Positions 208 to 60,079 of a stretch of DNA of 64,000 nt are shown here, in pieces. Numbering within the stretch: the first letter of the stretch is position 1; each line of letters opens with the position of its first letter. The stretch covers positions 48,670,001-48,734,000 of the forward strand of contig OZ024747.1 of NCBI GenBank assembly GCA_964016885.1, in the 5' to 3' direction. The position numbers were made by a program, and so were the translations under genes. The notes beneath the pieces were generated by a model, which saw only the letters and a list, made by a program, of their open reading frames with translations, had not been told where the DNA came from and did not search any database. Source of the stretch: Eledone cirrhosa (lineage: Eukaryota).

Positions 208-3200
208 GTAAGTATTATTTATATTTGTTTCAACATCTTTTCAATTCTCTTCCATACATCTGTTAGTTTCTATCACGCTATAGAAAGAATTTGTCAATAC
301 ATATTCTGCTGTTTAAAATGACTTTTAAACATCGTAACACATATATACAACACTTCATAACACAAATAAACCAACAATTTGCAACTGGCAATTAATATAT
401 AAAGAGGTTTGGTATTGTTTTAATCGTTTGTACATAAGTTGGTAATTGTGTTAGTGTTGTATTACGTTTTCTACATGTTACCCATTGTTAGTGTTGGAAT
501 CTTCATTAACTCTGTAACACGAGTTTTCATTTCCTGTAACACACGAAACCATATTGGCAAGGCATCATGAAAGCGACAAAAACATTGAAGTTAAATATTT
601 TCACAATTATCTATCCACTATTAAATAAACATTTGAAGTAACAAACCACATGAGACAGCATTAGCAAGACAAGAAATTCTTGAAAGACAGAATTATGACT
701 GTAAGAATTGAAGAATTGAAGACTTTATTCTAGAACTAGAGATTTTCATAACGATCTGTCCACTATGAACATCTGAAATAACAAACCAGTTTTTAAATAT
801 GTTCGTTTTCTGCTGAAATATTACGGGATGTTAAGAGTTAACTGTCCATTCTATATATATTTCCTGTAGCATTGGCAGTTCGCAAAGTAGCCGGAAAGTA
901 GCATTCGCAAAGTAGCCGGAAATACATACTTTAATTTCGCCAATATGCATTCTACTTTTCAATCCCAAGTTAAACGAAAAAACGTTGGAGATCTTCATGC
1001 ATTTAAAACAATGAAACAAAGAAACAGGGGCGTGGAGCCACAGGGCTATGTGGGCAACACACACCCATAACAACTCCCCACTCTGAAAGAATAATAATAG
1101 TGAGGTACGGTGGACACATACACACACACACACACACACACACATACAGAGTGACATATATATATATATATATATATATATATATATATATATATATATA
1201 TATATATATATATATATATATATATATATATATGTGTGTGTGTGTATATATCTGTATGTGGTTGAGGACTGACAGAAAGGAGTATTCAATACCGAAGTAG
1301 AGTTTTGATATTGTCTGATGACCCTGTGATAAACAGACGAAACTCAAGAGTAACAAGACTCACTATTCATCGTTAATGAAAATAAATATATCTATATATC
1401 TATATCTATATCTATCTAGCGGTGTAGAAAGGCCCTATTAAAAGCTACTTAGATATTAAAATGGTATAAGCTAGGAACTACCATAAAATCCCTGATCAGT
1501 AAAACTTACCCCTTTAAGAAAACCCGGTGTAAAAATAAGAAATGTGTAATATGTAGAGTAAGTCCACAAATAAATTGTAAAACTAGAAACGTAGTGTATA
1601 GCATAAGATGTACAGAGGGTACTTGCAGGAAGATGACAACGACTTACATAGGAGAGACAGCTCGGAGCATAGGGGAGAGATAGACCAGCAGTGGGGGGAA
1701 CTAAAAGGATAAAAAGACAATTCAGTACTATATGAACATGCCAGACTAAAACATGATGGTAATTAGACAACATAGAAGTTAAAATAATTGTTTCTACTTT
1801 AGGCACAAGGCCAGCAATTACCCAGTGCATTACTGGTACTTTATTTTATCGACCCCCGTAAGGAGGAAAGGCAAAGTCAACCTCGGCGGGATTTGAACTC
1901 AGATCGTAAAGGGACGTAACTATGCTGGAAAGCATGGCGTCCGACCCTCTATCGATACTGCCAATCCACCACTCAATCCTGAGCTCAAGCCGTTTCGACG
2001 GCTAATTCTGGAGTCCAGAATTAGCCGTCGAAACGGCTTGAGCTCAGCCGTCGGGGTCCTACTCGTTCCTATTACCCACTCTACTACCCTAAGTATTGAG
2101 TACTTTGGTGTGTTATGGTCCACCTGGTTCCTTACCACATTTCCTTCGTTATATATATATATATATATATATATACACTATATCGACTGTTGATAGATGA
2201 GATTACTAATAGTTAGGACCAGTATGACTGTTATACAACTTCGTACTCTATACTTGAGGAGAGTAGTGAGTAGTTCATAAAATATGTATGTATGTATGAA
2301 GACACGTAGCCTTGTGGTTAGGGTGTTGGACGTATGGTCATAATGTCGTAGGTTCAACTCCTGGATCATGCGCTGCGTTCTGTCCTGTCCTTCAGCAAGA
2401 CACTTTATTTCACATTGCTTCAGTCCATTCAACTGGCAAAAATGAGTTGTACCTGTGATTAGAAGGGCCAAGCCTTGTCGCGTTCTGTGTCACGCTGAAT
2501 CTCCCTGAGAACTACGTGAAGGATTCGCGTGTCTGTGGAGTGGTCAGTCAAATGCATATTAATTTCAAGAGCAGGCTGTTCCGTTGCTCATAAAAACTGG
2601 AACACTCATCGTCGTAACCGACGGAGTGCCAGTTAGATATGTATGCATTTATATGTATATACGTATGCTCAATCAATTACAAACACCTACACATAACCAT
2701 CCGTGGTGTATATTGTATTCACTTTGGTGCATACTCGCCTGTTTACATTGTTTGTATACTTCATATCAATTTGATTTCCCGTAAGACCCCTACAAAACAT
2801 GTTTTTTTATACCACACCCATAAATATACGTATGTATATGTGTGTGTGTGTATACGTATGTATGTGTGTGTGTGTGTGTGTATATATATATATATATATA
2901 TATATATATATATATATATATATCCAGTGGTGAACCACTAAACATAAATGAATATATATATATATATATATATATATATATAGATGTATGTATGTAAGTG
3001 TATGTATGCATGTATATATATATATATATATATATATATATATATATATATATATATATATATACACATATGCATTTATGTACATGTGGGCCTTTGAGTA
3101 TCAAATTACTAGGCGAAGTGGTTCTAAGTGCTATTCAATGTCGTGTAAGCAGTTTTACAGTAAACGTTTGCTATTGTAAAACATCACTTTTATATAACAA

Positions 3201-6200
3201 CCCTTTCAGTTAAGTCCAACTGGTGATGATTTCAAGTAGAAGAATGCCGAAATGATAATAGCTTCAATAGCATGCTACGCGTCTTTAACTCCTATTGAAT
3301 TCGTAGTGGTGCCATCACTTGGCTTTGAAAAACCTGGTAGAGTTCATCTTCTGCAGTTTCCGTCTTCTAAATCAGCCTTCCAAGACATTGATCAACGCGA
3401 GGTTATCGAAAAAAAAGAAAACACAAAAAAAAAAAATCAATCTTTTAGTTCCTGTCAGAACTCTCAGCCAACGTGTCTCACACACAAATTATCAAGGGGT
3501 GAAAAGATGGCTATTAGAAATAGTAGTTCACATTGATATAAAATAGAATGGTAGCATTCGGTTCATGTCTCCAAGCCGCATGGCTAGAGGAAAGCGATGG
3601 TAACAATGGTAGTGCCAAGAACCTTTAACGGACTTTAAATGCGATCATCCATTATATAACAATATAGTAGCGAGCTGAAATGTGTCAGCCACGTGCGTAG
3701 ATAACCATATATATACATATATATATATATATATATATATATATAGGAACAAGTGAGACCCCGACGGCTGAGCTCAAGCCGTTTCGACGGCTAATTCTGT
3801 CAGAATTACCCACTCTACTACCCTAAGTATTGAGTACTTTGGTGCGTTATGGTCCACCTGGTTCCTTACCACATTTCCTTCGTTATATATATATATATAT
3901 ATATATATATATATATATATATATATATATATATATATATATATATACAGAGAAATTTGCAGACTTTGCAATATGGAGTTGCTCCATATTTTAAAATACG
4001 ACAAAATGCTGCTTAACAGCAAAATTGAACGGTCAATTTTATGTAGGCATAAAGCAGCTACTAAATTCGCTAATTTCAAACCATCTTGATAAGATCCAAC
4101 AATTCCATAATTCAAACTGTACCACTTGAGTCCATTATAATAACCCATTATTATTATTATTATTATTATTATTATTATTATTATTATTATTATTATTATT
4201 AACTGTCAATAAATCAACTAATCAATGAATCAACATCATAACTTCCTAACTTTTCTTTCTTTCACTCTCTTTCCCTAAATATATTTCACCTCTTACATTA
4301 TATCCTATCGTATTCTCTTCACTTCTAACATAACTTCCAATTTATTAATTTATTAATTTACCCAATACATATATGTATATATTTAGTATTTTCATGTTTA
4401 TACCATCACGTCTTTATATTTTAACCACCAACACCACAACTATTTTCAACAATCATATTATGTTCACTTTTCTTCGCACACATAAAAAATTTTTTATTTA
4501 TTTTTTATCATCTTCATTTTAACTTATTTATTATTATTTATTTATTATTTTTTCTTCATTTTTTTCTCTCTCTCTTTTTCTTTTTTTTTTTCTTTTTTTT
4601 TTTCTTTTTCTTTCTATATCACTGATGTTGTGATTTGAATTTTCCTAGTATATTACAAACGCCGTGTATAATTTTTCTGATGATTTGGTTAAGCATACAT
4701 TGTATTTAAAATTGAGTGGCACAACTTCATATATATATAGAAGAGCTTCTACAACAGGACTAGAACTGTTTCATTCGTGAGAAATCATCAGGAAGCTTCG
4801 TGATGATTTCTCACGAATGAAACAGTTCTAGTCCTGTTGTAGAAGCTCTTCTATATATATATATATATATATATATATATATATATATATGTGTGTGTGT
4901 GTGTGTGTGTGTGTGTGTGTGTGTTTGTGTGTGTAGTATAAATGTATATAGAGACAGACAGAAATAGGGCAGCAGATATATATATATAATGGAACGGTCG
5001 ATATATATACAGAGAGAGAGAGAGAGAGAGAGAGAGAGAGAGAGAGAGAGAGAGAGAGAGAGAGAGAGAGAGAGAGAGAATAGAACGAAAAGACAGATGT
5101 AATACGATAGTAACACCAGATGGTGCTCCACTTCCGATCTGAAATACAAGGAGACTGTGATGTGAGGAAACATTTGGCTACAAACTCGCTGACCAGTAAT
5201 CATTTTCTGTCGCTTTCGTCACAGAACTTTGTTCACTATCGCTTAGATCCTCAATTCCCACATAAACACTCACATACACACACACACACACACACACACA
5301 TACACACGCACACACATACACACATTCACACACAATACTTCTCACATACACAATATCACACCCCACACATACACAACTTCATACGCACACACATACAGAA
5401 CCTCCTCCACACACATACAATTTTACAGACACAAACACAAACACACACTCATACATACTTCCATGAAATAATGTTCTAACGTGGATTCCAAAAGACTTCA
5501 TCGAGCGAGCTTTTAATTGTTTTCGCTTTCTAACCATTTAATATTTAAAGTATCAAGGATTCTAAATACTAAGTGATGCAGTTTTAAGTTAGTGACTAAC
5601 CCAGGCTTCGCTGCTCGTCAGGCCGAAGAGTCGAACCTGTAGCAGTTCTTGGTCCCCGGACCACATCTCTATTCACTACCATCGGAGCAGAGTTGGCTAT
5701 TCCAACGTTTTCTCCATTTTGACTGTTGTGATTACGAGGCAGCCTGCACATGGGCTCACACACAAGAGATCCCCATCTAGCCTGTCTGGGCCTAGTCCAT
5801 GTTGAGTTGCCCTGTCATTTGAGGGGCACATTCCGCTAAAACTGATATCCTCAACTGTTTGTCTAAATTCTTGAGACGATTTGAATTATTTACAATGAAC
5901 TTGTATCTAACTAGTGGTTTAATATCGTCCACTGTGTTGAAAACCTTCAGACTGTGGTTTGAAGATACTTTCCGCTTTCCTCCTTTTTTCGGTTATTCTT
6001 TTTAGTTTATGGTGGCGACTTGGTAAATACCTTGTTTTTTCTGCTCACTCACTGCACTATGAGTTCAAATACCATCATGATTAACCTCGCCTTTCATTCT
6101 TTCGGGAGTTATAAATATATCACCAGTTAATGGGCAGGAAATTGATCAACTTTTTTCCATTTTATTTTTACTTTTGTCTTTTTTCGAAATTACTTAACTC

Positions 6201-59787: not shown

Positions 59788-60029
59788 ACTGTTCACCTGC
59801 CAACTGTCAGAGCTAGTGAAAATATATGCTATTTTCTAAAAGATACAGTGACTGAGCGAAAATTTTCTTTTTTTTTTTTGAATTTGGCAAAGCCGGCCAT
59901 TTATCGCTCGTATACAGGAAACTGACTGGCCAATCTGCTGATATGCAAATCTGGCCGATCAGTCACTTTATATTTTAGAAAATAGCAGCATATATTTTCA
60001 CTAGCTCTGAGAGTTGGCAGTTGAACAGT

Positions 60030-60079
60030 GAGCTGACCTGATGAAGGGTGATACCCAGAAACATTAGTGTCTGCAGTTC
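60030..60079 (+). ncRNA. Type I hammerhead motif, inverted copy with damaged stem I
   Basis: Same core and stems II/III; gagctgac replaces gagctgta, giving two mismatches next to the core. Confidence 0.6.

Follow-up and report, generated by a model that had tools for sequence, protein, structure and literature searches.

Hammerhead ribozyme cassettes at TA repeats of Eledone cirrhosa as probable short insertions of Penelope-like element families

Introduction

Penelope-like elements (PLEs) carrying hammerhead ribozymes are known as a class, and their TA bias, inversions and tails are already published. In the accessible part of PMC4209133, minimal PLE pseudo-LTR hammerheads have a type I fold with an unpaired base at the start of helix II, a short palindromic helix III and a U3-A8 core variant; many families occur per genome, mostly as single truncated copies, and opposite-strand pairs lie 100-700 bp apart. 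Hydra-clade PLEs, according to the available sections of PMC8557442, have a C-terminal GIY-YIG, a CxCx5C linker, RWK-like and DKT motifs, hammerheads, (TA)n insertion and inverted 5'-truncated copies with a tail at one end only; the same sections treat the origin of inverted and tandem PLE insertions, and the role of the hammerhead, as open questions. For Poseidon from Anolis, studied in vitro, the portion of PMC11167929 at hand describes two internal initiation sites that define the tail, extension of both strands, an AT-rich target and an uncleaved RNA template, with hammerhead cleavage dispensable in vitro. Metazoan non-LTR retrozymes (partial texts of PMC7229834 and bioRxiv 10.64898/2026.07.22.740005) are non-coding units of about 440 nt found in head-to-tail copies with one type I hammerhead per unit. 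PLE families have been catalogued in Octopus vulgaris (PMC13282606), and hammerheads have been counted in giant squid (PMC6962438).

Here we analyze a stretch of 64,000 nucleotides from Eledone cirrhosa (contig OZ024747.1), referred to as the window, in which an initial annotation had flagged dispersed hammerhead cassettes, a phenomenon that is known. The insertions described below resemble the PLE systems in most of these features and, in one family (D), the retrozymes in those listed for them. We conclude with good confidence that the cassettes are short pseudo-LTR insertions of high-copy PLE families together with one retrozyme-like unit, placed at (TA)n tracts, probably by Penelope-type TPRT. 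It is likely that these insertions record how this class of PLEs copies its RNA.

Results and discussion

Hammerhead folds in the window

Four folds in the window matched a type I hammerhead descriptor (core CUGANGA, GAAA and UH in type I order, with helices I-III), with cores at 1315(+), 4791(-), 55135(+) and 59779(-). These are the window copies of families A, B, C and D, and the analysis confirmed as real the four motifs with pairing stems that the initial annotation had reported at 1311(+), 4744(-), 55127(+) and 59738(-). Its proposed check against dinucleotide shuffles also favored the folds: in 200 shuffles of the microsatellite-free window the mean was 0.02 matches and the maximum one (in 4/200), with a threshold that is post hoc, because a stricter first version of the descriptor recovered one of the four folds and was then loosened. 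The bare CUGANGA heptamer was not enriched (31 observed versus 26.5 +/- 5.3 expected from shuffles), and the hammerhead signal therefore resides in the stems.

The unenriched heptamer, together with the quarter or so of the window that lies near a TA tract and the lack of any hammerhead family in the 150 Rfam matches listed out of 215 for the window, which reflect microsatellite noise, would fit chance motifs in AT-rich DNA close to abundant microsatellites. The excess of folds, the coding parents and the hundreds to tens of thousands of copies, including the copy number of family E, refute this explanation, and its probability is negligible.

The weaker motif previously noted at 31964(-) is present as a decayed copy belonging to family F (core 31996-31990); it fails the descriptor on helix I, which has 3 bp here and 4 bp in most family F copies shown. 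Both of the mutated inverted copies were recovered as well, at 4800(+) with C3 of the core altered and at 60038(+) with helix I disrupted. Free-folding stability was unusually high for the stretches at 55127 (z -3.4) and 59738 (z -3.5) and not for those at 1311 (-1.9), 4744 (+0.4) and 31964 (-1.6). Self-cleavage is predicted, and is probably weak and dependent on dimers or protein.

TA repeats at element junctions

The five loci lie 83, 52, 92, 205/178 and 710 bp from (TA)5 or longer. Sequence no more than 200 bp from such a tract makes up 24.4% of the window, so finding four of five loci this close has a probability of 0.014, in agreement with the earlier observation that nearly all motifs are within about 200 bp of TA-rich tracts. 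Much stronger evidence comes from the junctions of family copies, which terminate at two fixed 3' ends (long and short) and were scored for (TA)4 within 8 nt of the element end. This was found at 66/70 and 70/73 ends of family E, 31/34 and 21/29 of family C, 36/53 and 16/25 of family A, and 24/27 long ends of family B. The association was weaker at the short end of family B (14/32) and at the long ends of families D (12/33) and F (26/44), although an alternating purine-pyrimidine run terminates 44/44 of the latter. Controls were far lower, with 6/76 and 11/114 for SINE ends and 3.9% for random positions.

Families and coding parents

Every cassette in the window belongs to a high-copy family; first-look counts of candidate copies, which are lower bounds, are at least 1,509 for A, 1,057 for B, 1,283 for C, 1,603 for D and 419 for F. 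Element boundaries were taken from alignments and may be off by a few bases. The family B insertion (4739..4851) is a palindrome of two back-to-back arms in (TA)n, with the intact fold on the minus strand (4744-4797, core 4791-4785) and the core-mutated copy on the plus strand (4800-4806). Family C (55024..55227, +) lies between TA tracts and consists of an inverted tail (approximately 55024-55065) and then a hammerhead (55127-55197, core 55135-55141, predicted cut after 55189) with a long helix II and a palindromic helix III. The family F insertion (31883..32192, -), which is intronic and antisense to a collagen IV-like gene, has about 100 nt of the PLE 5' start (32092-32192) fused to the 3' end with its decayed hammerhead.

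In families C (locus L204) and F (L209) the hammerhead is preceded, on its own strand, by reverse transcriptase (RT) and GIY-YIG sequences. The family B parent (L274, with L275 and L276) provides the endonuclease only, across a 2-kb TG/TA-rich spacer, and this link comes from one locus, whose subfamily is sister to that of the window copy. Translations of L204, L274 and the family E parent L339 have the CxCx5C linker, CxxC and CxH motifs near the C-terminus, while the RWK/DKT region lies outside the B and C parents, both being 5'-truncated before these motifs. Through such longer copies the cassettes at 4744 and 55127 appear tied to Hydra-type PLEs with RT and GIY-YIG, an assignment made from sequence motifs. 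The family F parent has a DKG motif and partly retained linker cysteines (two decayed copies), and longer copies point to a Neptune-like PLE with RT and GIY-YIG for 31964. Several ribozyme-bearing families do occupy TA repeats, as the initial annotation had proposed; its view of them as small elements does not hold for three of the five cassettes, which are short copies of PLE 3' pseudo-LTRs.

None of the fetched loci of families A, B, C, E and F showed the tandem order pseudo-LTR, ORF, pseudo-LTR; one such copy occurs in another Hydra-type family (L338). This locus, with an intact 773-aa ORF, was rejected as a family B parent, being another family joined to the B pseudo-LTR by microhomology. 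In helix I of family B, double-sided changes separate subfamilies (C-G in 18 and A-U in 17 of 50 distinct sequences), at two positions and reflecting a few subfamily events. Almost no compensatory helix changes were found within families A and D, and the family F rows of this comparison were discarded because D arms were mixed in.

The family A insertion (1252..1380, +) ends at the short 3' end and has an inverted copy of the 3' tail (approximately 1252-1307) upstream of its hammerhead, in which helix I pairs 1311-1314 with 1353-1356, the core is 1315-1321, GAAA is 1339-1342 and the predicted cut follows 1352 (+). No coding region was reached in 30 loci and six extended loci of this family, which have more than 1 kb of common non-coding upstream sequence. 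A broken GIY-YIG endonuclease remnant at 1422..1790 (+), termed P1, was considered as the gene of family A and rejected: it is near only one of 29 other A loci, and the 3' end of the P1 family differs from that of A. The P1 ORF yields only a sub-threshold RVT_1 match in Pfam. P1 represents a separate abundant PLE that adjoins family A through their common TA target.

A sixth family, E, was missed by the initial annotation and has 30,733 exact genomic matches (control 0). One window copy (1979..2149, +) combines a partial inverted arm with a sense arm that has the 3' half of the hammerhead only and a long tail, ending at (TA)n; the other (3745..3883, -), between two TA tracts, is a short-ended half hammerhead with an inverted tail. 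A collagen intron contains a further, diverged E-like half hammerhead (7331..7383, +), whose end lies close to a TA tract. In about nine of ten sampled E arms the U3-A8 hammerhead is reduced to its 3' half, and a first reading of the family as non-hammerhead was overturned by long copies, 25/30 of which have the U3-A8 core. The active fold is 2.4 kcal/mol above the best fold. In three parent loci (L339, L340 and L278), RT and GIY-YIG precede the hammerhead in the same orientation; the L339 translation includes DKT, and RWR was read from upstream DNA. An early ratio of 29 long candidates to thousands of short ones proved a subfamily artefact; in the positional sample 9/102 arms are complete, making short arms about tenfold more frequent.

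Of the five cassettes, only the one at 59738 is retrozyme-like; three have coding PLE parents. Family D is built of head-to-tail non-coding units with one type I hammerhead each, and in 2/30 D loci the repeats follow each other on one strand at spacings of 438 and 445 nt. A six-frame scan of the unit gave no RT or GIY-YIG motif, and the longest stop-free frame over two units is 136 codons. In the window insertion (59575..60219), the left arm, on the minus strand, has the intact fold (59738-59787) and the long end, and the right arm, on the plus strand, is almost one circularly permuted unit that spans the unit junction and has the short end and a helix I-mutated hammerhead (core 60038). A remnant at 54652..54917 consists of two inverted pieces without the catalytic core. 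Judged by its sequence, 59738 is a non-coding retrozyme-like unit of 438-445 nt, whose RNA, circular or multimeric, would likely be copied by a borrowed PLE protein.

Insertion anatomy and a possible transcription start

In family E, 37 of the 38 back-to-back arm pairs from a positional sample combine a long with a short end (P ~1e-10 if independent). Over five families, in a partly query-biased set, 75 pairs were long and short, eight short and short, none long and long, and one unclassified. Inverted 5'-truncated copies with a tail at one end are present in these families. Copies span the predicted cut site, and we therefore infer that uncleaved RNA was the template. By analogy with anole Poseidon in vitro (PMC11167929, partial text), the PLE RT-endonuclease would nick a TA tract on both strands, synthesis from either nick would be primed at one of two sites within the RNA that lie downstream of the ribozyme, and the two cDNAs would extend toward the RNA 5' end and then be joined back to back.

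A sharp 5' limit terminates short copies of three families, with 89/102 in the family E positional sample and 62/65 in another E set, 50/56 for family A and 20/26 for family B; nothing comparable was shown for C, D and F. In A, B and E a TATA-like box lies 29-31 nt upstream of the limit. We tentatively suggest that the limit is the transcription start of a pseudo-LTR promoter and that short copies are run-off cDNAs ending there, in which case most copies would be promoter-less and dead. In family E the start would fall inside helix II, so that the hammerhead would be divided by the promoter; transcripts initiated there would be unable to cleave, and read-through RNA would contain the whole ribozyme. 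Priming by a PLE dimer would be asymmetric, with a different internal site used on each target strand, and retrozyme D would be mobilized by this machinery as well.

An RT barrier or template-switch hotspot, such as a hairpin, on a long RNA of the same elements would also produce a sharp limit: in family E the limit falls on the 3' arm of a hairpin predicted within helix II, in A and B it coincides with the 5' edge of helix I, and many junctions are centered on short natural palindromes. A cap-opposite extra G, suggested by 9/10 bystander arms, was not confirmed in the positional sample, where G was not in excess (C 27, T 25, G 10, A 10), and its absence suits a barrier. However, a structural barrier does not predict TATA-like boxes at the same distance in three sequence-unrelated families, and the position of the limit in the fold differs between A and B on one side and E on the other. 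We consider a barrier unlikely. Regarding the promoter, no newt satellite 2 or snRNA-type source was found in the literature.

Many copies are 98-100% identical, and this, with the tenfold excess of short over complete E arms and the truly non-coding nature of family D, could suggest that the short palindromic copies move autonomously, as SINEs or MITEs do, and are not dead PLE by-products. Yet short copies are without the upstream TATA-like box, junctions vary between copies and the two arms terminate at different sites, which speaks for fresh synthesis each time and against the terminal inverted repeats of a DNA transposon. Autonomous movement is quite improbable. The combined reading, with run-off from a pseudo-LTR start, a split hammerhead and asymmetric priming, has slightly less than an even chance. 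If it is true, tens of thousands of natural insertions form a data set on PLE inverted structures and on the purpose of the ribozyme. The genome offers very many short young insertions of regular geometry, in which each event has both a long and a short end and the 5' limit is fixed, and ideas on start sites and asymmetric priming are therefore testable. Such copies could also pass for SINEs or MITEs in annotation.

Comparison with known systems

Relative to the minimal PLE hammerheads in the accessible part of PMC4209133, family E differs in its 6-bp helix III, very long helix II loop and predominance of 3' halves, and hammerhead density here may be far higher (a rough extrapolation). Tails are 25-80 nt long, compared with 30-40 nt in the available sections on Hydra-clade PLEs (PMC8557442), and 3' UTRs are 1-3 kb. 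For Poseidon, the portion of PMC11167929 at hand gives no strand difference in start-site use, whereas the arms differ in nearly all E pairs here, and that portion does not report a fixed 5' limit, unlike the situation in A, B and E. The partial retrozyme texts (PMC7229834; bioRxiv 10.64898/2026.07.22.740005) argue from co-occurrence and pseudo-LTR homology and not from insertion anatomy; family D shows PLE anatomy, with an inverted arm, two ends and TA flanks, and so adds evidence of this kind that retrozymes borrow PLE proteins.

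Hammerhead folds and their setting

The initial annotation had described at least four hammerhead folds, one weaker motif and two mutated inverted copies, mostly close to TA tracts. Scanning with a descriptor for type I hammerheads recovered the four located folds, whose cores lie at 1315(+), 4791(-), 55135(+) and 59779(-) in the cassettes defining families A, B, C and D. Their frequency is far above the mean of 0.02 folds in 200 shuffles under the same descriptor, which had been relaxed after a stricter version recovered only one of the four; the bare heptamer is at chance level (31 observed, 26.5 expected). 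The weaker motif at 31964(-) is present as a decayed copy of family F (core 31996(-)), most other members of which have a 4-bp helix I, and the inverted copies lie at 4800 and 60038. Proximity of the folds to TA tracts is also found, with only modest significance within the window (P = 0.014).

The host genome is 3.0 Gb; the window is 37% GC and (TA)n-rich. Its left part contains a collagen IV-like gene (6226-37734, +), since it holds plus-strand Gly-X-Y exons (6226-35108) and an exon matching proteins with collagen and C4 domains (37441-37734); introns of this gene contain the F insertion and an E-like copy at 7331. Homogeneous minisatellites of 46-, 29- and 79-bp units occupy 27500-28562, 33447-34539 and 61688-62248, respectively. 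Broken retrotransposon fragments with reverse transcriptase (RT) and endonuclease-like frames (13958-14323, 21825-23744, 24399-25845, 48943-51206) are presumably non-LTR retrotransposons. Decayed tail or pseudo-LTR remnants from other families (pseudo-LTRs being the hammerhead-bearing terminal repeats of Penelope-like elements, PLEs) adjoin TA tracts at 52328-52397(+), 55590-55750(-), 44470-44608 and 58499-58547.

First-look candidates genome-wide number at least 1,509 for A, 1,057 for B, 1,283 for C, 1,603 for D and 419 for F. Additional hammerhead families with palindromic helix III of varied kinds occur in flanks of fetched loci, where strict matches amount to 73 per 690 kb, compared with 4 per 64 kb in the window. 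Rough extrapolation from both suggests that hammerhead motifs number on the order of 100,000 genome-wide, a figure biased by TA-rich loci.

Insertion anatomy and proposed mechanism

Each family has two alternative 3' ends, long and short, 25-80 nt apart. (TA)4 adjoins 66/70 long and 70/73 short ends in E, 24/27 and 14/32 in B, 31/34 and 21/29 in C, 36/53 and 16/25 in A, 12/33 and 6/8 in D, and 26/44 long ends in F, against 6/76 and 11/114 ends of a control SINE and 3.9% at random. The earlier suggestion that several ribozyme-bearing families colonised TA repeats is supported. Back-to-back arms combine a long and a short end in 37 of 38 pairs of an E positional sample (102 arms in 60 stretches, from the first 74 listed matches in the first 19 Mb of C1). 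Across five families, 75 of 83 classifiable pairs are long + short and none long + long, a partly query-biased count that leaves out four inward-facing E pairs. The tail, between the two ends, contains an 11-nt motif common to the otherwise unrelated A, B and E (e.g. 2093-2104), a candidate protein-binding site.

The 5' ends of short copies fall at a fixed limit in E (89/102 in the positional sample, 62/65 in a separate set), B (20/26) and A (50/56), with a TATA-like box 29-31 nt upstream in all three. Such spacing marks a polymerase II start, and we infer that the limit may be the transcription start site. The main rival reading is a barrier to reverse transcription at this position; the TATA-like box argues for a start. 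An extra G at the E limit, as expected opposite a 5' cap, showed no enrichment in the positional sample. If transcription does start there, the E start would lie within helix II of the hammerhead, so that the short RNA could not cleave and a read-through RNA could.

The anole PLE protein is described as cutting and extending both strands of AT-rich DNA, with reverse transcription beginning at two internal RNA sites bounding the tail; uncleaved RNA serves as template, and the ribozyme requires protein help (PMC11167929). The Eledone copies are alike in spanning the predicted cut site, having two end sites and facing outward. Each nicked target strand would prime at a different internal RNA site, and the cDNAs would extend to the RNA 5' end and then be joined via microhomology.

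Family E and its half-hammerhead copies

Family E was missing from the initial list; its 33-nt pattern matches the genome exactly at 30,733 places, against 0 for the control. Its window copies (1979-2149 and 3745-3883, besides the variant at 7331) lack the 5' half of the hammerhead core. Long copies hold this half, with a U3-A8 core, a variant described before (PMC4209133), in 25 of 30 arms. Their hammerhead lies downstream of a Hydra-type RT-endonuclease and includes a GUC site; helices I and III measure 5 and 6 bp, and helix II is long. In one long copy, the hammerhead fold has an energy of -23.1 kcal/mol, compared with -25.5 for the best fold. In the positional sample the core occurs in 9/102 arms, and 89/102 end at most 22 nt upstream of GAAA.

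Coding parents

At one C locus (L204), a frame encoding RT and GIY-YIG, its linker of the CxCx5C type, lies upstream of C beyond about 1.1 kb of untranslated DNA. A B sister subfamily has about 2 kb of TG/TA-rich sequence upstream and then a CxCx5C-type endonuclease, the endonuclease link coming from one locus and the remaining chain from three. Motif match to the published description (PMC8557442) would place the B, C and E parents in the Hydra clade. Upstream of F (L209) lies a broken, near-full-length PLE with DKG present and the cysteine linker decayed; the window F copy joins the 5' start of this PLE to its 3' end. Copies of A have more than 1 kb of non-coding upstream sequence in common, and upstream extension of these loci reached no coding region.

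Long B copies (L214-L243, L274-L277) are 99-100% identical in their unique part. Because some 2 kb of TG/TA repeats lie within the element, these copies spread new microsatellite, potential target sites included. At L338:1365-7297 (G000:C281), an intact 773-aa ORF for a Hydra-type RT-endonuclease, which may be active, occurs as two identical tandem copies; the 3' UTR has a hammerhead-like core whose helix II spans about 85 nt, and no TA run was seen at the tandem junction. A separate, very abundant PLE, P1 (18,689 first-look candidates; window 1422-1790, L203:6326-7963, L275), has open frames of 546 aa and a linker of the Cx4CxxC type. TA flanks 10/12 of the P1 3' ends, and the 3' UTR contains a hammerhead-like motif of atypical form.

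Family D and retrozyme-like arrays

Family D is non-coding, with head-to-tail pairs spaced 438 and 445 nt in 2 of 30 loci. The right arm of the window copy crosses a unit junction, suggesting that the template was a multimer or a circle. Three octamer-like motifs lie upstream of the hammerhead in D units (59900-60030 in the window; L051) and resemble snRNA-type promoters; our literature search found no source for this likeness. Further retrozyme-like tandem arrays (L060:2287-3217, L024:2546-3030, L348) include a 310-nt unit in at least four copies and a 484-nt unit having upstream features in common with D. Since D has the same insertion anatomy as the PLE families, it supports the published proposal that PLEs mobilise retrozymes (PMC7229834; bioRxiv 10.64898/2026.07.22.740005).

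Comparison with known systems

Earlier work described minimal hammerheads in PLEs, their pairs on opposite strands and their low activity in vitro (PMC4209133), as well as TA bias, inversions and one-sided tails of PLEs (PMC8557442). Among cephalopods, 235 hammerhead matches were reported in giant squid (PMC6962438), and for Octopus vulgaris 31 Penelope-like families are listed as recently active (PMC13282606); the main text of the latter paper is free of the words ribozyme, hammerhead and retrozyme, and its repeat library or supplements may include families A-F. In a literature search, with many journals outside its coverage, none of the papers listed dealt specifically with these families or with PLE copies ending at a start-site limit. 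The hammerhead cassettes are real and well explained, as additional families within the known PLE/retrozyme class; the features of most interest are the putative start-site limit, the possible split of the E ribozyme and the strict long/short pairing.
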